The notes below the pieces were generated by a model. The model saw only the letters and a program-made list of their open reading frames with translations. It made no database searches and was not told the origin of the DNA. A program made the translations under genes and the position numbers. A DNA stretch of 64,000 nt from an uncultured Gammaproteobacteria bacterium (GTDB taxonomy: Bacteria > Patescibacteriota > Microgenomatia > Woykebacterales > RBG-16-39-9b): positions 5,568 to 69,567 of the forward strand of contig CAYHXX010000004.1 of the NCBI GenBank assembly GCA_964360785.1. The letters are read 5' to 3'. Shown here piece by piece: positions 5,199 to 53,224 of this stretch. The stretch's first letter is position 1; each line of letters begins with the position of its first letter.

Positions 5199-5501
5199 AT
5201 GTCGGGCACGATTTGGGGGCTCTACGGTCTCGGATTCTTCACCGGAATCTTCGTGGTGGTCTTCAACAAGGACCAGCACGGGTGGCTCTGGAAGTTCAGC
5301 TGCATCTTTCTGGTCGGGTGGATCCCAGAGCGGATCTACACCTGGGGGCGGGCATTGTTCGGGCGGAAGCATACCATGTCGATCATGGGCTTCCTAACCC
5401 TTACCTTCCTGCTCATCTTCTTCTTCCCGGTCAGCATCCTGGTCTACTGGATGGCTAACCGGGGGAGGAGAACGGCAACGACGGGACCAGGCACGCCGTA
5501 G
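5199..5501 (+). CDS. small membrane protein (about 3 TM), GC-rich island
   Basis: SD ggaggag 2 nt before ATG; hydrophobic segments; high GC3. Confidence 0.45.
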   Translation: MSGTIWGLYGLGFFTGIFVVVFNKDQHGWLWKFSCIFLVGWIPERIYTWGRALFGRKHTMSIMGFLTLTFLLIFFFPVSILVYWMANRGRRTATTGPGTP

Positions 5502-5698
5502 GCACAACTCCAGGTGCGGGGCGGTCGGAAGTAGTTTCATGCGCAAGCACGAAACCTACCCGACCACCCTAATCCTAACTTTTAGTTTGCGAATTAGTTT
5601 CAATCCGCCAGCCGGCGGAGAAGCTAGCTCGGAAGCTAAAACTTCTTTCCGATAGAACAAGTTCATCGGAATATCACGGGGGATAGAAAGGAAAGACA

Positions 5699-5881
5699 AT
5701 GAGGTATTTGTTTTGGGCCGTGGGTTACGGACTGATCATTGGGGTCGTAATGACCGTCATGTTCGTCCATGAGCACATGGGCTCTACTACCGAAGGTCTG
5801 GAATGGTTCGTCATGATGACAGTGAACGGATCGTTCTTCTTCGGCGTACCCTTTGCCCTGCTGACGGTTCGGGAGGGGTAG
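5699..5881 (+). CDS. small membrane protein (2 TM), GC-rich island
   Basis: SD aaggaaag before ATG; two hydrophobic helices. Confidence 0.35.
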   Translation: MRYLFWAVGYGLIIGVVMTVMFVHEHMGSTTEGLEWFVMMTVNGSFFFGVPFALLTVREG

Positions 5882-6070
5882 CTGAATCATAGTTTCGGGC
5901 ACAAGAGTCACCTCTGCAACGGAATAATTGGTGGGTGCCTATTCCAAAGCGAGTAATCGCTGAGGAAGAAAGCACCCGCCCAACAACCAACTCTTCGACA
6001 GATAGGCACAATGGTGCTATACTTTATGGCTATCTGCGGGGGAGTTGAATGGAGTCAAGGAGAGAATCGC

Positions 6071-6562
6071 ATGGATTGCACATTTACACGGGTCATGTTT
6101 GGTCTTCTCGTCGTCATTCTGGTCGGGAACGCGATCACCCTGAAGAACGTTAGCCGCTCGGTGGCGCCGCGCACAGACGAGGAGAAGCGGGAAGCTATCG
6201 AGAGGACCGTGAGTAACCCGGCCGTGAATGGTGTCTATGATCCTGACGTCGTCGTGTACGCCACGACGCAGCTTCAAGGGATCTACGGGGACATGGTCAA
6301 CTATCCGGATCGACCGGTTCCGGTCGATGAAGTTCTACTCTACCTGACCTACCTCGCTGAGGGGTCGATGAGTAGACCAGACGCAATCGACTTCTGTAGC
6401 CGTGTACGTCCGCTCTGGAGTGCGTCGCACAGAATTGGCGATTTGCTTTTTGGAAAAGAGGCAACTCAGAATCAGCAAGACCTGTTCAGTAGAATTGACA
6501 ACGCCGTCGGTCAGAAAGACAAAGATGGTGCTTGTCAGTCTACACAGGAGGTGAGCACGTGA
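6071..6562 (+). CDS. hypothetical TM-anchored protein, GC-rich island (ORF track 6011..6562; ATG at 6071 preferred)
   Basis: SD aaggagag 6 nt before atggattgc; N-terminal TM then soluble domain; terminator hairpin at 6593-6637. Confidence 0.4.
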   Translation: MDCTFTRVMFGLLVVILVGNAITLKNVSRSVAPRTDEEKREAIERTVSNPAVNGVYDPDVVVYATTQLQGIYGDMVNYPDRPVPVDEVLLYLTYLAEGSMSRPDAIDFCSRVRPLWSASHRIGDLLFGKEATQNQQDLFSRIDNAVGQKDKDGACQSTQEVST

Positions 6563-6660
6563 ACAACGTTCCCACCGCAACAGGCACTTCGTGGATGAAT
6601 CCCCCCGGATCCACGAAGTGCCGTAAGTTTTTTCCAAATATTGAAATTAAAATCGAATAG

Positions 6661-7564: not shown

Positions 7565-8197
7565 ATGATTCTTTCCGACCGTGACATCAAGAGAGCAATA
7601 AGCTCTGGCAAAATCTCTATAGATCCTAGCCCAAACTTTGAAAGCCAGCTTGGTAGCTGTTCAATTGATTTTCATCTTGGAAATACTTTCAAAATTTTCA
7701 ACCATTCCAAATACCCATACATCGATCCGCGCAGCCCTAATCTCACGAGTGAATTGATGAAGGATATTGTGGTTCCCGGAGATGAGCCGTTTATCATGCG
7801 GCCAGGAGAATTTTGTTTGGCGACAACAGTTGAGAACCTGAAACTCGCCGATGATCTTTTGGGAAGACTTGAGGGCCGCAGTTCTTTGGGAAGAATCGGA
7901 ATTATCGTCCACTCAACTGCTGCTCGTTTTGATCCAGGTTGGGATGGTACGCCAGTATTGGAGCTAGGAAATATTGGGGTTTTACCAGTAGCACTTTACC
8001 CAAAGATGAAGATTTGTAGTTTTACCTTCGAACAACTTTCAAGCCCATCAGAGAATCCTTATGCGAAACGAAAGAACGCAAAATATACAAACCAAAAGAG
8101 CCCAGTAGCTAGTCGGATCTCCGAAGAAATGAGTACAACTGAGGCTCGTTATGTGCGGCATGGAAAAAAGTCTGTGAGGGTCGATGGTCTTAAGTAA
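7565..8197 (+). CDS. dcd: dCTP deaminase (Dcd/dUTPase superfamily, long form)
   Basis: MILSDRDIKRAI...IDPSP, RSSLGRIGIIVHSTAARFDPGWDGTPVLELGNIG, ICSFTFEQLSSP. Confidence 0.85.
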   Translation: MILSDRDIKRAISSGKISIDPSPNFESQLGSCSIDFHLGNTFKIFNHSKYPYIDPRSPNLTSELMKDIVVPGDEPFIMRPGEFCLATTVENLKLADDLLGRLEGRSSLGRIGIIVHSTAARFDPGWDGTPVLELGNIGVLPVALYPKMKICSFTFEQLSSPSENPYAKRKNAKYTNQKSPVASRISEEMSTTEARYVRHGKKSVRVDGLK

Positions 8198-8678
8198 CAC
8201 AACAATCAAGAAATTAATTCAAGAAAAGAAGATCAAGATAAATCCGTTTTCCAATGAATCTGTGGGGGCTGTTTCCATTGATCTTCATCTCGATGAAACC
8301 GCGCTCAATCCAGATACTCGTGTGGAAACAGATCTGAAAGATTTTCATCTCACACCAGATGAGTTTTATCTTGCCGCAACAGCGGAGTTTGTCGAACTTC
8401 CGAGCAATATTGTGGCCCGTGTTGTTCCAAGATCTTCGCTTGCCCGACTTGGAGTTTTGGCGACTTTTGATGCTGATATCTTGCCGCCAAATTATGCTGG
8501 AAAACCATTGTTGACTCTAAAAAATCTCTCGCGCAAACCAGTATTACTTAAACCCGGACTTGCGGTCGCGCAGATTATGTTTGAACAAGTTGATCAAGAG
8601 GTTGAAGGGTACAAAAGCCGTTACAACCATAAAAAGATCGAGGAAAGTAAACTTTGTGAGGAAATAGATGGCAAATAG
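8184..8678 (+). CDS. second Dcd/dUTPase-superfamily protein, short form, possibly a dUTPase
   Basis: MVLSNTTIKKLI..INP, RSSLARLGVLATFDADILPPNYAGKPLLTLKN; 14-nt overlap with the upstream dcd. Confidence 0.65.
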   Translation: MVLSNTTIKKLIQEKKIKINPFSNESVGAVSIDLHLDETALNPDTRVETDLKDFHLTPDEFYLAATAEFVELPSNIVARVVPRSSLARLGVLATFDADILPPNYAGKPLLTLKNLSRKPVLLKPGLAVAQIMFEQVDQEVEGYKSRYNHKKIEESKLCEEIDGK

Positions 8679-10239
8679 AACAGAAAAGTGGCCGCTTTTA
8701 TACGAAAACATTTTACGGGTTGGTGATCCAGACCAGTCGGTTGGGGTAGTTACACTCTGGACTGAGCGGGATGTGATTAAAGATTCACTCGAAAAGAAAG
8801 ATTACGCTGCCATTGGCAATCTGTATTCGCCAGCTGGCATAAACCACATGATGCGCAATGTTCTGGCCAACCCCAGCATTCGCCATCTAATAGTGTGGGG
8901 AGCGGATATGTCTGGTTCTGGTTCTTCTTTGCGTAATTTCTTTGAAAAAGGAATCGATAACGATTACAAGATTATTGATGCACCTGGTCAGATTGAGACT
9001 GAGATTCCCAAAGAAGCAGTCGAATCCTTCCGAACAAATGTTGAACTGATTGATATGAGAGGAAAACCAAAAGAAGAAGTTGTGAAAGCTGTCAAAAGTT
9101 TTAAAAAAGAAAAACCATTCCGAAAAGAAGCAGCTCTTTTCCCAGCCGCAGAGAAAAAAGTTGTCAGCTGGCCATCAGAGCAGATTAGTTTCCGGATTGA
9201 ATCGCCAAAAGTTGCTAGTCTTTGGTTGAAAGTTCTCAACATGGTGACCAAATACGGTCGGGTCAAATCTACCCGCTATGCCACGACCAATGAACTTAAA
9301 GAATTGCTCAATCTCAACTCTGTTCTTACAGACGAGGATCCAGACAATGAATATTTCCCCGAATATCTTCCCTTTACTACAAACGAACTGAAAGCTTATT
9401 ACCCAGAGTGGCTGACTGCTCGTCGTATTCCCGGAATGGCTTACAATTATGGTGACCGGATGCGCAATCTGGATGGAATCAATCAAATTGAAGAGATCAA
9501 AAAACTCTTACAGACTCGTCCAGATAGTAAAAAAATGATTGCATCTTTATATAATGTAAAAGTTGACTGGGCAGCAGCTAATACGGGTGACACACCTTGC
9601 ATCACCCAAGTGATTTGTGGTGTGCAAGATAAGAAACTCTTTATGACAGTCCATGTCCGCTCCCAGGATATGTTCCATGGTTGGCCGAGAAATATGTTTG
9701 CTGCCCGCAAAATGCAAAAAGAAATCGCCGACTCGGGTGGATATCCAATGGGGAAACTCGCGATGATTACTCACAGTGCCCATATGTACGCCGATGATTG
9801 GGCGACTGCACAGGAGCTTCTCGACAAGTACTATATAAAAGAAACAGCGCAGTATAAACCCGGTTTTCATTTCCAAGAAGACCCGAGGGGCAACTGGTTG
9901 GTAGACATTGATTGGGAAAACAAACTTATATTGGCCAAGTTGATGAGCCCAGATATGAGTACAGAGTTGACTATGTTTCATGGAAAAACGGCTAAAGAAG
10001 TGATAAAACAAATCGGTGAGTGGGAAATCCTGACTTTACCTTCACATGCACTTGATTTTGGAGCCGAGCTACAAAAAGCGGAGATTGCACTAAACTATGA
10101 TCTGCATGATTGGAAACAAGATCGAGCTATCAATTTCGAAAGACAGAAGGTGGAAAGCCCTGTGGTTGAAAAGTCAGAGCGAGTACTGCCGCCAACCCGC
10201 TATATCAAACGCGGGAAGAAATCTATCCCAATAAAATAG
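8668..10239 (+). CDS. fusion protein: N-terminal MtrA-like domain + thymidylate synthase (ThyA)-fold domain
   Basis: N-terminus KWPLLYENILRVGDPDQSVGVVTL..NPSIRHLIVWG..EIPKEAVESFRTNVELIDM resembles tetrahydromethanopterin S-methyltransferase subunit A; C-terminal half has ThyA motifs incl. nucleophile DTPCITQVI, VRSQDMFHGWPRNMFAARKM, ITHSAHMY; 11-nt overlap with upstream gene. Confidence 0.55.
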   Translation: MANRTEKWPLLYENILRVGDPDQSVGVVTLWTERDVIKDSLEKKDYAAIGNLYSPAGINHMMRNVLANPSIRHLIVWGADMSGSGSSLRNFFEKGIDNDYKIIDAPGQIETEIPKEAVESFRTNVELIDMRGKPKEEVVKAVKSFKKEKPFRKEAALFPAAEKKVVSWPSEQISFRIESPKVASLWLKVLNMVTKYGRVKSTRYATTNELKELLNLNSVLTDEDPDNEYFPEYLPFTTNELKAYYPEWLTARRIPGMAYNYGDRMRNLDGINQIEEIKKLLQTRPDSKKMIASLYNVKVDWAAANTGDTPCITQVICGVQDKKLFMTVHVRSQDMFHGWPRNMFAARKMQKEIADSGGYPMGKLAMITHSAHMYADDWATAQELLDKYYIKETAQYKPGFHFQEDPRGNWLVDIDWENKLILAKLMSPDMSTELTMFHGKTAKEVIKQIGEWEILTLPSHALDFGAELQKAEIALNYDLHDWKQDRAINFERQKVESPVVEKSERVLPPTRYIKRGKKSIPIK

Positions 10240-10281
10240 TTATAGGGTTGACAAATCCTTTTTTTGTGTTAGAATCCAAGC

Positions 10282-10551
10282 GTGGACGCTTGGATGCGCA
10301 CTTGTGTGTCGGAGCGGCCTGTCTTCTCTGCTACCCTGGTAACGGATCAGGTGTTGGTGGACTTTTCCGAGGAGGAGACTCTGCAGCTTGCTGTAGAGTA
10401 TCTGAATTGGGGTGAGTTCACGATCCTGATTTCAGTATCAGTGGTAGGAGAAGGCGGGTTGGTTGAAGTACCAGAACCACTTAGGGAGGAGCTGACGGAT
10501 TACTTCCGGACGCACCACCTTCGTGGGGTTGGGACCAAGACCGCGCTCTAG
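10282..10551 (+). CDS. hypothetical ORF in a GC-rich unit (weak; no SD)
   Basis: only long ORF between promoter ttgaca-17-tagaat (10246-10275) and terminator 10761-10792; transcript begins with a hairpin ccaagcgtggacgcttgg. Confidence 0.2.
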   Translation: MDAWMRTCVSERPVFSATLVTDQVLVDFSEEETLQLAVEYLNWGEFTILISVSVVGEGGLVEVPEPLREELTDYFRTHHLRGVGTKTAL

Positions 10552-10760
10552 GCCACCGGGGGTTTGATGGAATCCTTGTCGACAAATCTATCAACGCAGC
10601 CAGCGTGAGATAGTATCCATCCGGTTCTACTCAACCGTTTGTGGTATGCAAAGACCACGGAGAATGAGGGGAGTGTAGGGAGCGAAAGGAGAGTGCTATG
10701 TATAAAGCATACACCTGTCCCTACCTTAAGATTTTCAAACTTTGGAAAGCTTAAGAAGAG

Positions 10761-10792
10761 GAACGACCTAGAAATGGGTCGTTTTTCTTTTT
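10761..10792 (+). terminator. intrinsic terminator, repeated module copy 2
   Basis: aacgacctagaaatgggtcgtttttctttt. Confidence 0.6.
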
Positions 10793-10819
10793 ATCAAACG
10801 TATAGTATATTAGTCACCT

Positions 10820-11482
10820 ATGCATGGAAAAATTATTGATTTTGAAGGAATAGACGGTACTGGAAAAAGTACTCAGGTCAAACTTCTAATAAACTATTTA
10901 AAGAAAAACAAAAAGAAGCATAGTTTCTACAAATTTCCACAGTATCAAGCTACTTTCCACGGTAAAACTATTACCAAGTTTCTCAGGGGAGAGTTTGGGA
11001 CGATTTCTGACGTCAGCCCGTATTTGATCTCCCTTGCCTACGCGATGGATCGGGTTTCAACCAAAGAAAAACTTTTTGATGATCTCAACGACGGTAAAAT
11101 AATTATCTGCGACCGTTACGCTCCAAGTAACAAAGCCCATCAAGCTGCCAAAATGATTGAGCCAAAAAGAGCGGATTTCCTGAATTGGTTAGACGAGCTT
11201 GATTACAAAGTTAACAAAATGCCGCGGGAAGATTGGGTAGTTCTGCTTGATATGACAGTAGAGTCAGCATTTAAACTTCTCGAAAAAATCCCACGCAAAA
11301 AAGACATCCACGAGACTGAAGCAGCATACATGGAGGAAGCTCGCAAAGTTTATCTCAAAATGGCCCAGGGTAACCATCACTGGCTCGTTATTAATTGTAT
11401 AGACGAAAAAGGTAAACTCAAAAGCAAAAACCAAATTCACAAAGAGATAGTTGAGATTTTATCCCAAAAGCATATAATCTAA
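10820..11482 (+). CDS. tmk: thymidylate kinase
   Basis: P-loop FEGIDGTGKST, DRY-type ICDRYAPSN, lid region. Confidence 0.85.
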   Translation: MHGKIIDFEGIDGTGKSTQVKLLINYLKKNKKKHSFYKFPQYQATFHGKTITKFLRGEFGTISDVSPYLISLAYAMDRVSTKEKLFDDLNDGKIIICDRYAPSNKAHQAAKMIEPKRADFLNWLDELDYKVNKMPREDWVVLLDMTVESAFKLLEKIPRKKDIHETEAAYMEEARKVYLKMAQGNHHWLVINCIDEKGKLKSKNQIHKEIVEILSQKHII

Positions 11483-11503: not shown

Positions 11504-12094
11504 GTGAAGGTCTATCTGTTCCTGTACCCGATCAAGGAGTACATCTACAGCCTGCTTCTGATGTGGCCAACTTTCAGTTTCAACGAACATCAAGCGAGTG
11601 AAATCAATCGGTTAATCAGGGCCAGATATCGCGAAAGAGGTTACCAGATCTGGTGGTTGCTATTTAGCGACCCTAATGACCTCGAAAAGCCAGATTTGAC
11701 TAGGATATTTGATGGAATGAATATCTTAGAGGGGGATACACTGATTCCTTGTGGGATTACCTTCCAAGACCACATCAGTAAGAAACTGTACGCGGACTCG
11801 GAGAGAGTTGTTGATCGATTACCTAAGGATATTGAAGAATTGGTACTAGGAGGTTTCCACCAGGGCGATTGTGTTGACAAGGTTGCCGCGTGTGCTTATT
11901 CACGGGGGACACCTACTTTTGTCGACGAAGATACGACAGAATACTTTTTCTCGCGAACAGGGTCTATGGGCGATATACCTACTCTTAGAGAAGAATTTAG
12001 GGTGAGTGAGTTAACTTCAGAGCGGGATAAAACTTGGATTAATTGGATTCTAGAGCGCAGAAGAAATAAACCATGGTTGACACAAAAACCATGA
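11504..12094 (+). CDS. hypothetical protein (GTG start)
   Basis: ORF after tmk; no recognised motif. Confidence 0.35.
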   Translation: MKVYLFLYPIKEYIYSLLLMWPTFSFNEHQASEINRLIRARYRERGYQIWWLLFSDPNDLEKPDLTRIFDGMNILEGDTLIPCGITFQDHISKKLYADSERVVDRLPKDIEELVLGGFHQGDCVDKVAACAYSRGTPTFVDEDTTEYFFSRTGSMGDIPTLREEFRVSELTSERDKTWINWILERRRNKPWLTQKP

Positions 12095-43487: not shown

Positions 43488-43604
43488 GAGAATAGGTTAC
43501 ACGGATGGGAGCGGTCGGCGAAAGCCAGACTGAACCGTAGCGAACCACAAGTTTGCTCTCTTCCCGGCCCTTAAGAAAATCAGATTGGTTTGTTTAAGAA
43601 GAGA

Positions 43605-43634
43605 AACGACTCAGCAATGGGTCGTTTTTCTTTG
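43605..43634 (+). terminator. intrinsic terminator, repeated module copy 3
   Basis: aacgactcagcaatgggtcgtttttctttg. Confidence 0.6.
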
Positions 43635-43677
43635 GGAAAATTTGCTTATCTACGGAGGGAAAAGTTAAAATCAAAAT

Positions 43678-44058
43678 ATGAAAACAAAAATAGAAACTTC
43701 TGAAGCGCCGGGTGCACCGGGACTTTTGTCACAGGCAGTTGTAAGTGGCGATACTATTTATGTAGCCGGTCAAATACACAACACTGCTGATGGCAAAATG
43801 GTTGAAGGTTCAACTGAAGAAAAAGTTCACCAGATAATGAAAAATTTCGCTGCAATTCTGAAAGCTGCCAATTCGGACTTTGCACACGTAGTCAAAGTCA
43901 ATATTTATGTTACTGATATGGCAGAACTTCCAAAACTCAACGAAGTCTACAAAACCTATTTCACCACTGAACCCTTGCCAGTGCGAGAAGCAGTCTGCGT
44001 GAAAGCCTTACCTCTCGGCGCGAATATTGAAATGAGCTGCATCGCCTCCAAAAGCTAA
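43678..44058 (+). CDS. ridA: RidA/YjgF-family enamine/imine deaminase
   Basis: APGAPGLLSQAVVSGDTIYVAGQI...NIYVTDM...R.AV.V..LP. Confidence 0.85.
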   Translation: MKTKIETSEAPGAPGLLSQAVVSGDTIYVAGQIHNTADGKMVEGSTEEKVHQIMKNFAAILKAANSDFAHVVKVNIYVTDMAELPKLNEVYKTYFTTEPLPVREAVCVKALPLGANIEMSCIASKS

Positions 44059-49039: not shown

Positions 49040-49312
49040 ATGGCATACCGACCAAGGAACACACAAGAAAGAATTCTTCACCGGCTAAAAATAGTCCAAG
49101 GACATCTCAAAAAAGTTATAAATATGGTTGAAGAAGACGATTATTGTATTGATATTCTCCACCAAACCCAAGCAATCGAAAAGGCTTTAAAAGAAGCCGA
49201 CAACTTAATGCTTGAGAACCATCTGCAATCCTGTGTTTCTGATGCGATCAAAGGAGGTCGGAAGAGCGAAGCAATTGCGGAGGTCATTGAAGTATTTCGT
49301 AAAGCGCAATAA
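49040..49312 (+). CDS. csoR: CsoR/RcnR-family metal-sensing repressor
   Basis: RLKIVQGHLKKVINMVEEDDYCIDILHQTQAIEKAL...HLQSCV. Confidence 0.75.
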   Translation: MAYRPRNTQERILHRLKIVQGHLKKVINMVEEDDYCIDILHQTQAIEKALKEADNLMLENHLQSCVSDAIKGGRKSEAIAEVIEVFRKAQ

Positions 49313-49315
49313 TTT

Positions 49316-49679
49316 TATGACAATAGATAAAATTTTAGTCATCTTTTTTAGTATCGCAGGAATCGGTTTCACCTATTGGTTTTTTCTGAGGAAGGGTGAG
49401 AAAGAAGTCGTCGTAGCCTTGAATTCAATTGATATTTATGTCGATGGTGGTTATCAACCGGAAGTTATTTCGATAGCAAAGGGTAAAACAACCAAAATTA
49501 ATTTTCTACGAAAAGATTCGTCAGCTTGTTTGGAAGAAGTCGTCCTATCAGATTTCAAAATCCGCAAATATTTGCCTTTAAACCAAAAAGTAACTGTTGA
49601 AGTTACTCCGCCAAAACAAGGAATGTTTGATATTTCCTGCGGGATGAACATGTTTCACGGAAAGATCAAGGTAAACTAA
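49316..49679 (+). CDS. cupredoxin-like domain protein (N-terminal TM anchor)
   Basis: ATG at 49316; FDISCGMNMFHGKIKVN resembles the C-terminal domain at 52700-52960. Confidence 0.5.
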
Positions 49680-51920
49680 ATGGCAGAAACTAAACAAACT
49701 TATGCAATCAAAGGTATGCACTGTGCCTCCTGTGTCGGAGTGCTAGAAAAATCGCTTAAGAGAACTTCTGGAATTAAAGAAGCCGTAGTAAATCTAGCTA
49801 CCGAAAAGGCAACTGTCACTTTTGATCCAGATATTTGTAGTGAAGACCAAATAGCTTCCGCAGTCGCGAATGTCGGCTACAAAGTGGTTACAGGTAAGGA
49901 AGCTACTTCTGTTGATCAGGAAAAAGCGGAAAAAGCCAAAGAGTTAAAGGATTTACGCAATAAAGTTGTGGTTAGTCTATTCTTAGGAGCGTTAATTTTG
50001 TGGGGGAGTTTCCCTGGATTAATCAATACTGCTCCGGAATTTTTAAAAAACTTTTGGGTTCAACTAATACTCGCTACTCCGGTACAGTTTTGGGCAGCTC
50101 TTGGTTTTTACAAGGCAACTATTCCCGCCCTGAAACACCGAACTGCCAATATGGATACTTTGGTTGCACTCGGTACAACGGTCGCTTACGGGTATTCCGC
50201 TTTTGTGACAATCTTTCCTAGTGTAATTATGAATTTAGAAATTGAGGCCATGCCGTACTTTGATGTAGCGACTCTTGTTATTGGTTTGATCCTACTTGGT
50301 CGTTATTTCGAGGCCAAAGCCAAAGCCGGAACCAGCGAAGCAATCAAAAAATTAATCGGCATGCAGGCCAAGACAGCTCGAGTTTTACGTGATGGCAAAG
50401 AAATCGATATTCCGATTGAAAAGGTTGTCATCGGGGATGCGATTAGAGTTCGACCAGGTGAGAAGATTCCGGTTGATGGGCAAATTTTGGAAGGAGAATC
50501 TAGTGTTGACGAGTCCATGTTAACCGGTGAGAGCATTCCGGTGGATAAATCCAAAGGCGACAGCGTTGTCGGAGCGACCCTGAATAAAACCGGGACCTTC
50601 ACTTACCGAGCCACCAAAATCGGTCAGGATACAATGCTTGCCCAAATTATAAAACTTGTCTCTGAAGCTCAAGGGTCTAAGGCCCCGATTCAACGAGTTG
50701 CCGATCTGATCTCTTCGTACTTCGTCCCAATTGTTATCATGCTGGCATTTGCTACTTTTGGAGTCTGGTACGTTTTTGGTTCTTCGCCAGCTGGCGAACC
50801 AAGTTTAGTTTTTGCTTTGCTCAATACTGTTGCGGTTCTCATCATTGCTTGTCCTTGTGCCATGGGTTTGGCGACGCCAACTGCGATCATGGTGGGAACT
50901 GGCATTGGTGCTGAGCACGGAATTTTGATAAAAGACGCCGAAAGTTTGGAGATTGCCCACAAAGTTAAGACCATTATTTTTGACAAAACCGGGACTTTGA
51001 CCAAAGGTAGCCCTGAAGTTACAGACATTATTCCAGCGGGCAAATTATCAGAGGATGAAGTTTTAAAAATTGCGGCTTCGATCGAGAAAGGTTCGGAACA
51101 CTCATTAGCGGAAGCAATTGTTAAACATGCGGAGACGAAAAAAATTGATCTGGAAAAAGTTAGCGCCTTTAAAGCAATCGCTGGTCACGGAGTTGAAGGA
51201 AAGGTTGAAGAAAAGCAAGTTTATCTTGGTAATAGAAAGTTAATGGATCGAGAAAAGATTAATTATCGAACTTACTTAACTCAAATTGAAAAGTTAGAGA
51301 CCGAAGGCAAAACAGTTATGTTACTTGCAGTTGACCGAAATCTAGTTGGGTTAGTTGCGGTTGCCGATACGGTTAAGGAGAGTGCAAAAGCAGGAGTAGA
51401 ACCTTTGCAGAAAAAGGGAATCGAGGTGGTCATGATCAGTGGTGATAATCAAAGAACAGCAAATGCAATAGCTGAAAAATTAGGAATTAAAAGGGTTTTG
51501 GCTGAAGTATTGCCAGACCAGAAAGAAGCGGAAGTGAGAAAAATCCAAGCCGAGGGAAAAATAGTTGCCATGGTCGGTGATGGTATCAATGACGCCCCCG
51601 CCCTTGCTGCCGCCGATGTTGGCATCGCGATGGGTTCAGGAACTGATGTGGCGATTGAAGCAGCTGACATTACTTTGATTAACAAAGATTTAAAATCAGT
51701 GGCTAGTGCAATTGAGCTTTCCCGCAAAACCATGCGGACAATCAAAATGAATCTCTTTTGGGCATTTGGTTATAATGTTGTTTTGATACCGGTCGCTATG
51801 GGAGCGCTTTACCCATTTTGGGGTTTACTGCTCAACCCAATTTTTGCCTCAATGGCAATGGCGTTGAGTTCAATTTCAGTGGTTAGCAACTCTTTATTGC
51901 TGAGAAAGGCTAAGATATGA
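49680..51920 (+). CDS. copA: copper-translocating P1B-type ATPase
   Basis: [31 protein letters not shown]. Confidence 0.95.
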
Positions 51921-52960
51921 ATCTTTGGGTAATATTTCTAACTGGGTTGACGGTCGGAGGTTTGACTTGTTTAGCAGTTCAGGGCGGACTTTTGGCCTCG
52001 GTTATTGCTGCCAGAGAAGAAGAGGTTGGTAGCAATATCAAGAAACACGCTCTTTACGCGACAGGAGTTTTTCTAGTTTTTAAGCTTTTTTCATACACTG
52101 TTTTAGGATTTATTCTCGGTGCCTTTGGCGGCGCGCTGAATATTAGTAGTAGTGTGCAGACATTCATGCAACTTTTGGCTGGGATTTATATGATTCTTGT
52201 GGCAATGAATTTGCTCAATATTCACCCGATTTTTCGCTACGCTATTATTCAACCGCCACGGTTTTTAACACGATTGGTAAAAAACCAGTCAAAATCCAAA
52301 GACATCTTTGCGCCGGCCTTTTTGGGTGCAATGACAATTTTTATTCCTTGTGGGACAACTTTGGCAATGGAGGCCCTGGCGATTAGTAGTGCTAATGCTT
52401 TTGTTGGCGCTGGAGTGATGGCAGCGTTTATTTTGGGAACAATGCCTTTGTTTTTTGGAGTTGGAGCGGTTACTTCTTTTATGGGAGAAGCCTTTAAAAC
52501 AAAATTCTTTAAACTAGCCGCGGTAGCAGTGATTTACCTTGGTGTGACCTCTATTAACGGAGCTTTGGTTTCAATGGATTCTCCGTTCACATTTCAAAAA
52601 TTAGCGGAGAAATTCCCGGTTTCGCTCAGTATCGGGGGAGCAGTTTCGGAAAATGAACAGCAACCCGAAGCGACTCAAAGTAGTGAAATTGTTACTAGCC
52701 AGGATGTGCAGATCAACATAACTTTCCAAGGTTATAGCCCAAACTATTTTCGGGTAAAAAAGGGTGAACCGGTAAAGCTGACTTTAAAAAGTGATGGCGC
52801 CTTTAGTTGTGCCTCGGCCTTCCGTATCCCGTCCCTCGGGATAAGCAAGAACCTGACGCCAAATGATACAGAGGTGATTACCTTTACGCCTGACAAAGCT
52901 GGTAAGATCCAATTCAACTGCTCAATGGGAATGTATCGCGGAATCATTGAGGTAATATGA
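51917..52960 (+). CDS. polytopic membrane protein (TauE/CcdA-like) fused to C-terminal cupredoxin-like domain
   Basis: ATGA overlap with copA; C-terminal domain [21 protein letters not shown] paralogous to 49316..49679. Confidence 0.5.
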
Positions 52961-53184
52961 GTACTTTTGTCAAAGAAAAACTAAAAATTTCTGGTATGCA
53001 CTGTACTTCTTGTGCAATGAATATTGATTTTGATTTGGAAGATCTTGATGGGGTAAGTTCAGCAAAAACAAACTATGCAAGAGAGGAAACCGAGGTTGAG
53101 TTTGATCCCGAAAAACTACAGCTAGAAGAGATTTTAAAACAAATCCAGAAAACCGGTTATAAAGCCACTGCGATTACACAATAA
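52957..53184 (+). CDS. copZ: copper chaperone CopZ (HMA domain)
   Basis: GMHCTSCAMNI. Confidence 0.8.
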   Translation: MSTFVKEKLKISGMHCTSCAMNIDFDLEDLDGVSSAKTNYAREETEVEFDPEKLQLEEILKQIQKTGYKATAITQ

Positions 53185-53224
53185 ATCTGTTCGAACTTTA
53201 AAAGCCCTTTTGGAATTTAAGCCT

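Follow-up and report, generated by a model that had tools for sequence, protein, structure and literature searches.

[quoted passage not shown]

Introduction

Thymidylate synthesis is essential and a classic drug target, and to our knowledge only two mechanistic classes of thymidylate synthase are known, ThyA and ThyX. As a reference for the ThyA active site we used the E. coli enzyme, with its nucleophile Cys146, the dUMP-binding residues R166, S167, N177, H207 and Y209, and E58/Y94. Canonical ThyA also carries a bulky hydrophobic residue, L143, for water exclusion, an R126/R127 phosphate clamp from the partner subunit, and a C-terminal segment that closes over folate. Asp169 is pterin-binding and is replaced by Asn in flavin-dependent homologs (PMC13326640). 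Relatives that modify other pyrimidines, namely the 5-hydroxy-dCMP synthase AfhB, MilA and T4 dCMP hydroxymethylase, have Asp at position 177, matching their dCMP or CMP substrates; enzymes of the type of AfhB, a phage protein, also have the flavin-type Asn at 169. The archaeal, methanogen-type ThyA enzymes are biochemically uncharacterised (PMC9931769).

Accessory domains have a conceptual precedent in the bifunctional DHFR-TS of protozoa and plants, in which an N-terminal alpha/beta domain precedes the synthase in a chain of about 500 aa and cofactor handling is joined to synthesis. Here we describe a chain of similar layout whose N-terminal domain instead resembles MtrA, the corrinoid subunit of methyl-H4MPT:CoM methyltransferase (PDB 5laa, 5l8x; PMC4915002). 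We found no description of this three-domain family in the body of literature that we searched; database entries call its members 'thymidylate synthase', 'DUF4346 protein' or 'hypothetical'.

Results

Four plus-strand genes at positions 7565-11482 of the analyzed window, a 64,000-nucleotide stretch of contig CAYHXX010000004.1, form a genuine gene cluster, a predicted dTMP-synthesis operon covering the pathway from dCTP to dTDP: dcd (7565..8197, 210 aa), a Dcd-fold paralog (8184..8678, 164 aa), the fusion gene (8668..10239, 523 aa) and tmk (10820..11482, 220 aa). The first three reading frames overlap by 14 nt (8184-8197) and 11 nt (8668-8678), and a GTGAGG Shine-Dalgarno-like sequence lies 5-7 nt 5' of the ATG of both the paralog and the fusion. 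A preliminary description of this DNA had proposed three overlapping, coupled genes; we confirmed its coordinates and both overlaps, and its pathway logic is correct.

The dcd product is a dCTP deaminase by the equivalog model TIGR02274 (198.8 bits, cutoff 92.8), with M. tuberculosis Dcd as its best PDB match (chain 2qxx, E 4e-46, aa 1-186). The catalytic Glu is present, VLELGN aligning with TLELSN of 2qxx, and the enzyme is possibly a bifunctional dCTP deaminase/dUTPase. The paralog also exceeds the TIGR02274 cutoff (105 bits), but we rejected it as a deaminase because the Glu of the xLE motif is replaced by Thr (TLELSN to LLTLKN) and IDPGF by ILPPNY. It matches PF22769 (E 2e-31), the dUTPase family PF00692 (36.6 bits, cutoff 22) and the archaeal dUTPase model PRK02253 (48 bits), and is probably a Dcd-like dUTPase or a non-catalytic partner. 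Both proteins fall in the Dcd/dUTPase superfamily, as had been proposed. Across 82 species-level loci with the fusion, dcd lies directly upstream of it in 43; the paralog is limited to this window's locus (W) and to L004, L007, L008, L009 and L083.

Dcd and the fusion end in a common C-terminal tail (RYVRHGKKSVRVDGLK, 8147..8194, and RYIKRGKKSIPIK, 10198..10236). When the window is scanned in six frames, the pattern RY[IVL][KR].GKK has only two sites, one in the Dcd tail and one at 10198-10221. The tails co-occur in 6/6 loci, and Dcd lacks the tail in 37/37 loci where the fusion lacks it. AF2 models the fusion tail as a beta-hairpin at aa 511-522 with low confidence (pLDDT about 62). Such sharing is a hint that several enzymes may assemble into one complex.

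The fusion and tmk are separated by a variable spacer (10240..10819, plus strand), a unit of its own that carries a promoter-like site (10248-10275; TTGACA-16-TAGAAT with TG, 11/12 matches) and a terminator-like hairpin (10762-10795). Between them lies an orphan 85-aa ORF (10294-10551), a singleton cluster for which we found no Pfam match and no homolog. The predicted transcript is strongly structured (RNA fold z = -6.8) and had no Rfam match, and in a 78%-identical relative different genes occupy the slot. The segment had been described as an inserted GC-rich cassette followed by tmk; it is a separate unit ahead of tmk, with only moderate GC enrichment (48.4%, and 54.7% in its ORF, against 43.7% for the window). 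The tmk product is a dTMP kinase (PF02223, 82.6 bits, cutoff 27; NF005923, 122 bits), and Tmk is encoded near the fusion in 49/82 loci.

The fusion itself comprises three domains and the tail: an N-terminal MtrA-fold domain (aa 5-146, 8680..9105), a compact ThyA catalytic core (aa 173-393, 9184..9846) and a PterinBD-DUF4346 domain of three beta-strands followed by two helices (aa 401-487, 9868..10128), all on the plus strand. Both MtrA (PF04208, E 2e-17, aa 5-146) and Thymidylat_synt (PF00303, E 1e-16, 60.9 bits, cutoff 24.3, aa 257-387) matched significantly, as the preliminary description had expected. It had assigned the C-terminal 300 or so residues to ThyA, which holds for the core; the last 120 or so are DUF4346 (PF14251, aa 404-478, E 6e-11, 43.4 bits, cutoff 29.6) plus the tail. 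The AF2 model of the whole chain has pLDDT 84.8 and pTM 0.70.

The fusion is one gene and no frameshift artefact. The same architecture occurs in the 82 loci and about 150 distant representatives, and the family numbers no fewer than 450 clusters when grouped at 50% identity (E <= 1e-10). Its holders are Patescibacteria (CPR), DPANN archaea, some Chloroflexota and KSB1, and it is common in the ultra-small CPR bacteria and DPANN. Neither this spread nor the existing database label figured in the earlier domain scheme. Neighboring genes across loci encode Dcd, Tmk, Tdk (thymidine kinase; 29 loci) and ribonucleotide reductase (adjoining in 13 loci), with the housekeeping genes topA, rpsB, tsf and frr around the fusion. 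Rosetta-stone fusions join Tmk to the three-domain synthase in P0295, P0300 and P0320, and dCMP-deaminase fusions also occur in the family.

We compared the core with the E. coli reference in 82 close homologs and 124 distant representatives. The catalytic and dUMP-binding set (C311, R331, S332, N342, H372, Y374, E212 and Y261) is present in 82/82 close homologs and kept in 116-124 of the 124 distant ones; Cys311, the nucleophile, is invariant, and so are the motifs HGWPRN and THSAHMY, which bears out the earlier reading of an intact ThyA active site. The Asp169 equivalent, D334, is found in 82/82 and 120/124. The best-scoring ThyA model is the methanogen-type TIGR03283 (aa 177-379, E 1e-31, 109.6 bits), aligned over its whole length (positions 3-199 of 201); like that model, the core has neither the long inserts nor the C-terminal segment of bacterial ThyA, whereas the MtrA-fold and DUF4346 domains are additions to it. 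Given the invariant catalytic set and a neighborhood that encodes Dcd, Tmk, Tdk and ribonucleotide reductase, we conclude from sequence and gene context that the protein is probably the ThyA-class thymidylate synthase of its hosts.

Several features stand against this assignment. Scores fall below the equivalog cutoffs of TIGR03283 (174.55) and TIGR03284 (37.8 bits, cutoff 108.35). In place of R126/R127 the close homologs have Lys288-Lys289 (82/82), which would be a conservative change, and distant members mostly have Arg-Arg. The L143 position is polar, Asp308 in 82/82 and N, H, S, D, G, K or E throughout the family. Compared with canonical E. coli ThyA (PF00303), the fusion further has DUF4346 replacing the folate-closing segment and an N-terminal domain of about 165 aa, and no folA was found within about 8 kb in any of the 82 loci.

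The acidic residue at L143, shared with the T4 and MilA hydroxymethylases, raises the possibility that the product of the enzyme is 5-hydroxymethyl-dUMP or another C5 adduct, destined for modified DNA. The top structural matches are likewise modifying enzymes (AfhB, 9iqc/9iqu, and MilA), and a modified base would appear as T in sequencing. Asp308 is, however, the only hydroxymethylase-like residue: the L143 position varies in the family and is therefore no functional signature of it, while the invariant Asn342 (Asn177, dUMP-type) and the retained Asp169, with neither N177D nor D169N, exclude the dCMP-type and the flavin-type enzymes. Every PHROG match is to a thymidylate synthase family, modification genes such as those for glycosyltransferases are absent, the surroundings are housekeeping, and the nearby thymidine kinase implies that thymidine nucleotides are used. 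We regard a dUMP-modifying enzyme as extremely improbable. Pyrimidine hypermodification, suggested earlier, is likewise unlikely, given the invariant Asn177, the clade-specific acidic L143 position and a context of housekeeping dNTP metabolism.

The N-terminal domain belongs to the MtrA family by its PF04208 match, and the reported loss of the corrinoid His was upheld. The cobalt ligand His84 and its partner Glu54 are both Ser in this fusion, Thr53 is lost too, and the meander GAIPF-Y/F-x-EN reads APGQIE--TE, with a two-residue deletion. Close homologs have Ser at position 84 (81/81), and the 124 distant representatives have S, T, A or G there, never His; a neighboring His86 is present in only 36 of the 82. 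In contrast to MtrA, the domain is joined to a thymidylate synthase and has no transmembrane helix, and no mtr genes occur among the called genes of the window between 2.6 and 55.7 kb. Unlike the first domain of DHFR-TS, it has the MtrA fold and gave no DHFR family match; a reductase activity would be purely hypothetical.

Nevertheless, the residues conserved family-wide (G50, Y53, S54, G57, R63, N64, G78 and S84) lie on the beta2-alpha2 loop, helix alpha2 and the beta3-alpha3 loop, the segments of the MtrA cobalamin site, and include the tail-pocket residues Gly57 and Asn64. Since these are the best-conserved parts of the domain, some ligand probably binds there; their conservation calls for a specific ligand, which the preferred reading does not name.

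One candidate is a redox or C1 cofactor, bound possibly together with DUF4346: either a reductant or a corrinoid bound His-off, with Ser/Thr below its cobalt. The synthase would then receive its methyl via this cofactor, or would itself reduce its dihydropterin again, so that FolA would be unnecessary. The conserved segments fit this model, as do the invariably small residue at position 84 and the lack of folA near the fusion in the 82 loci. In the corrinoid iron-sulfur protein, likewise, cobalt is not known to have a protein ligand, and a Thr lies below it. Consistent with the model, the equivalent locus of the cultured Saccharibacterium Southlakia holds a canonical 313-aa thyA and folA, folA is absent from 45% of CPR genomes, and the adjoining ribonucleotide reductase is, we infer from its Cys-rich C-terminus and the lack of a small-subunit neighbor, the B12-dependent class II enzyme. 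Against it, His84, Glu54, Thr53 and the meander are all gone, and the full methylene-transfer set (including Asp169, Glu58 and Tyr94) is kept, for which direct methyl-cation transfer would have no need. The methanogen-type models span the core only, so the core probably works alone. Absence of folA nearby is weak evidence, and folA was found with thyA in 4/5 among 12 CPR MAGs. We consider such a relay unlikely.

Alternatively, both accessory domains might be irrelevant to catalysis, serving on an ordinary ThyA as a scaffold, in oligomerisation or in regulation by a nucleotide effector such as dTTP or dCTP. The core is complete, the N-domain has a generic Rossmann-like fold whose pocket binds a nucleotide tail in MtrA, and the shared Dcd tail would suit a complex. 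Yet both domains are conserved nearly as well as the core, a pattern that extends over hundreds of clusters at 50% identity, and there are hardly any departures from the architecture. DUF4346 corresponds to the C-terminus of TIGR00284, an archaeal dihydropteroate-synthase-like model (weak match, E 0.0055), which suggests a pterin link; we found no informative solved relative of PF14251. Catalytically irrelevant accessory domains seem very unlikely.

Discussion

The reading that we favor, and think likely as a whole, is a coupled dTMP operon with a ThyA-class synthase at its center. Dcd would convert dCTP to dUTP or dUMP, with the Glu-less paralog probably acting as dUTPase or partner subunit; the synthase would convert dUMP to dTMP by methylene-tetrahydropterin, most likely CH2-H4folate from GlyA; and Tmk would yield dTDP. 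Catalytic chemistry would take place in the methanogen-type core, and DUF4346, at the place of the folate-closing segment, most likely contributes to binding or enclosing the pterin. The MtrA-fold domain no longer has the His-Glu cobalt ligation, but its pocket at that site is conserved. Its most likely role is to bind a ligand (a cofactor tail or effector) or to organise the oligomer; a function as a His-on corrinoid methyl carrier is unlikely.

The preliminary description was sound in its domain assignments, in noting that the corrinoid His is missing and in its pathway logic, and weaker in both functional suggestions. An alternative C1 donor, proposed for a host without canonical folate metabolism, fits poorly with an Asp169 kept in 120/124 distant members, and the premise does not hold for CPR genomes in general, because the reported frequencies among 4,581 of them are 81% for glyA, 80% for folD and 55% for folA (PMC11974145).

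The three-domain family bears on the biochemistry of archaeal-type ThyA. If, against our expectation, the His-less domain with DUF4346 did hold a His-off corrinoid or another redox or C1 carrier at the former cobalamin site, a widespread enzyme of CPR, DPANN and Chloroflexota would add a mechanistically distinct third class to the thymidylate synthases, a ThyA-like core with an internal cofactor relay, possibly independent of dihydrofolate reductase. On the favored reading, a third architecture, ThyA core with MtrA-fold and DUF4346 domains, appears to be the standard enzyme across a large share of microbial diversity. The roles of its accessory domains would give a function to DUF4346 and to a non-corrinoid branch of the MtrA family, and would shed light on how cofactor-scavenging symbionts make dTMP.

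The gene cluster and its fusion protein

The window belongs to a contig from Hainich groundwater (Hain_H52, ENA ERZ1292618) that derives from a Saccharimonadia-like CPR bacterium. The cluster consists of four ORFs at the positions assigned to them in the preliminary description. ORF1 (7565-8197) encodes a dCTP deaminase (Dcd) that scores 198.8 bits with TIGR02274 (cutoff 92.8). Its match to the M. tuberculosis Dcd chain 2qxx has E 4e-46, and the catalytic Glu is retained. ORF2 (8184-8678) encodes a 164-aa protein of the Dcd/dUTPase fold in which Thr occupies the Dcd catalytic Glu position and ILPPNY stands where Dcd reads IDPGF, and for these reasons we do not classify it as a deaminase. Judging by its length, a PF00692 match and a match to an archaeal dUTPase model, our best guess is a Dcd-like dUTPase, and ORF2 would be either a divergent dUTPase or else a non-catalytic subunit. 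The gene is strongly conserved within the close clade, which comprises the window's own locus (W) and L004, L007, L008, L009 and L083. Downstream lie the fusion gene (8668-10239, + strand) and, beyond a spacer, tmk (10820-11482), a dTMP kinase gene recognized by family profile matches. The first three genes overlap by 14 nt and 11 nt, with GTGAGG upstream of each downstream ATG, an arrangement consistent with translational coupling.

The 523-aa fusion contains an MtrA domain (PF04208, aa 5-146), a ThyA core (approximately aa 173-393, where TIGR03283 aligns over nearly its full length, with E 1e-31, and PF00303 covers aa 257-387) and a PterinBD-DUF4346 domain (PF14251, aa 404-478). The MtrA and ThyA assignments of the preliminary description are both borne out by profile matches, and the third domain had been missed. 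An AlphaFold2 model built from 28 homologs is confident (pLDDT 84.8, pTM 0.70).

Distribution of the fusion family

Among the best 120 database matches, nearly all have the same three-domain architecture. Scanning species-representative genomes yielded 80 fusion loci in Saccharimonadia, many Microgenomates lineages, some Paceibacterota and several Chloroflexota metagenome-assembled genomes (MAGs). The genes from high-GC Chloroflexota MAGs (L029, L030, L033 and L080) share 44-49% identity with the CPR protein, a pattern that points to inter-phylum transfer or to an ancient origin. When the ThyA core alone served as query, an exhaustive search returned 450 representatives of 50%-identity clusters at E <= 1e-10, of which the whole close CPR clade accounts for one or two. 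The next ~150 representatives are almost all 460-530 aa long, and their core begins close to residue 170. ThyA and DUF4346 were found in all of ten spread and six further named representatives, as was MtrA except in P0167 and P0320; named sources include candidate division KSB1, Kerfeldbacteria, Parcubacteria, Aenigmatarchaeota, Nanoarchaeota and Woesearchaeota. A literature search on DUF4346, on PF14251/PF04208 and on MtrA with thymidylate synthase or ThyA found nothing describing this architecture.

The possibility raised earlier that the fusion is a frameshift artifact of two separate genes was rejected, as nearly all homologs are single ORFs and the sole split copy carries a deletion. In that copy, from the close relative L088 (1498-3019; JGI 3300065473), the gene is split into a 203-aa "MtrA" and a 299-aa "thymidylate synthase", and ~50 nt are deleted within the ThyA core, removing the R203-E212 catalytic region. 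We regard L088 as a damaged copy, a pseudogene or an assembly error, and not as a two-gene ancestor. It illustrates how pieces of the fusion gene acquire an MtrA label in the genomes of non-methanogens.

Catalytic core and gene context

Diagnostic ThyA positions (E. coli numbering) were taken from PMC13326640, in which Asn177 indicates dUMP and Asp169 indicates pterin, not flavin. The equivalents of the Cys nucleophile, R166, S167, D169, N177, H207, Y209, E58 and Y94 are each present in 82/82 close homologs, and the same nine are found in 116-124 of 124 distant representatives. The equivalents of R126/R127 are Lys-Lys in the close clade only. At the L143 equivalent the close clade has Asp308, as in hydroxymethylases, which would accord with the earlier suggestion of a pyrimidine hypermodification enzyme. 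We rejected Asp308 as a hydroxymethylase signature since the superfamily table shows this position to be variable; across the family it is N, H, S, D, G, K or E, so Asp308 is not a family signature.

The fusion neighborhood is uniformly devoted to dNTP metabolism across 82 loci. Dcd lies directly upstream in 43 of them, and nearby genes encode Tmk (49 loci), thymidine kinase (29), HAD hydrolase (29) and ribonucleotide reductase (13). Some representatives are natural four-domain proteins that carry a further enzyme within the same polypeptide: P0295, P0300 and P0320 (~700 aa; P0300 from a Nanoarchaeota MAG) add a C-terminal thymidylate kinase, and P0184 and its cluster mate P0274 (733 aa; P0274 from a Nanoarchaeota MAG) add a dCMP deaminase. 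These fusions tie the synthase to the enzymes that presumably supply its substrate and consume its product. In P0167, an 837-aa variant, ~350 C-terminal residues have no assignment, and no MtrA match is detectable. Together, the catalytic residues, gene context and natural fusions favor a ThyA-class thymidylate synthase as the best-supported reading, an activity that we infer.

A peptide shared by Dcd and the fusion protein

The C-termini of Dcd (8147-8194) and the synthase (10198-10236) are the same basic peptide, RYVRHGKKSVRV and RYIKRGKKSIPI, respectively, a motif that occurs nowhere else in a six-frame translation of the window. Among relatives, the tail is present on both enzymes in 6/6 loci, the Dcd tail is found in 0/37 loci with a tail-less fusion, and the motif is absent from all other neighboring proteins. 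The shared tail may serve as a common docking or assembly tag. ORF2 as its receptor was not supported, as L011 has the tails without a nearby ORF2 and L083 has ORF2 without the tails.

The spacer and other features of the window

The 580-bp spacer between the fusion and tmk (10240-10819; 48% GC) contains a promoter-like site near consensus (10248-10275), an orphan 85-aa ORF with an atypical GC3 of 62% and a terminator-like hairpin (10762-10795). Its predicted RNA fold exceeds shuffled controls in stability by a wide margin (z = -6.8). Searches of the spacer found no tRNA or tmRNA and no Rfam match, whether gathering thresholds or a limit of E <= 1 were applied. Different genes fill this slot in a 78%-identical relative; the spacer is a variable insertion slot outside the operon's function.

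In a window-wide scan of the + strand, RNA structure was strongest in GC-rich, gene-poor islands at 10283-10800, ~600-1200, 5400-6600 and 43600-43800, where 200-nt z-scores were -4 to -6 compared to a window mean of -0.6. None of these islands has an Rfam match, and they may be either GC-rich cassettes or structured RNAs of an undescribed kind. Three sites in the window (10724-10792, 43569-43633 and 1126-1169) share a conserved terminator-like repeat, TTAAGAAGAG-AACGACC-loop-GGGTCGTTTTTCTTTTT, which is also present at 8976-9015 in L004, the locus of another species. Elsewhere in the window, a 196-aa ORF following tmk (11504-12094) has no Pfam, NCBIfam or PHROG match and is the only member of its cluster at 90% identity, and a 183-aa ORF in the upstream island (6011-6562) has no Pfam match. 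A copper-homeostasis cluster (~49040-53190) encodes a CsoR-like repressor, cupredoxin-domain proteins, a P-type ATPase with an HMA domain, a DsbD_2 protein and a small HMA protein.

Accessory domains and the C1 donor

In MtrA, His84 is the cobalt ligand and Glu54 its hydrogen-bond partner, Thr53, Lys52, Gly57 and Asn64 contact the nucleotide tail, and Tyr18 and Val61 sandwich the base, with a GAIPF-Y/F-x-EN meander (Wagner et al., PMC4915002). The fusion has Ser84 and Ser54 at the first two positions, lacks Thr53 and has a shortened meander. The ligand His is thus missing, as first noted: 81/81 close homologs carry Ser at position 84, and 124 distant members carry Ser, Thr, Ala or Gly. Because it is never His, the whole fusion family lacks MtrA-type His-on ligation. 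We also rejected His86 as a shifted cobalt ligand, as it is present in only 36/82 close homologs and replaced by Glu, Asp, Gln or Lys in distant members.

The N-domain residues conserved family-wide (G50, L52, Y53, G57, R63, N64, P69 and G78) map exactly onto the loops and helix that form the MtrA cobalamin site. Conservation of the two accessory domains (0.43 and 0.42) comes close to that of the catalytic core (0.47), so the former cobalamin site likely retains some ligand or interaction. [quoted passage not shown] The domain weakly matches the C-terminus of an archaeal dihydropteroate-synthase-like model, a fold search with it returned no informative relative, and a role as a pterin-related lid would fit.

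The observation in the preliminary description is confirmed and extended here, and its overall interpretation, an alternative C1 donor or cofactor in an organism lacking folate metabolism or else a hypermodification enzyme, is partly supported. The folate premise does not hold for CPR in general: across 4,581 CPR genomes, glyA was reported in 81%, folD in 80% and folA in 55%, and complementation of E. coli by folA genes from CPR was also reported (PMC11974145). The annotated part of the window contains no folate genes. A minority hypothesis is that the accessory domains free the synthase from its need for FolA, or use another cofactor. At the equivalent locus of Southlakia, a cultured Saccharibacterium, the order is tmk-dcd-folA-thyA and the ThyA is a canonical one of 313 aa, whereas no DHFR was found near the fusion in any of 82 loci. 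Given this contrast, and with folA missing from 45% of CPR genomes, we retain the hypothesis as a minority view alongside the favored assignment as a ThyA-class synthase. The fusion architecture is widespread, and databases already list it, generically named; the accessory domains, both of them conserved, raise a real mechanistic question.
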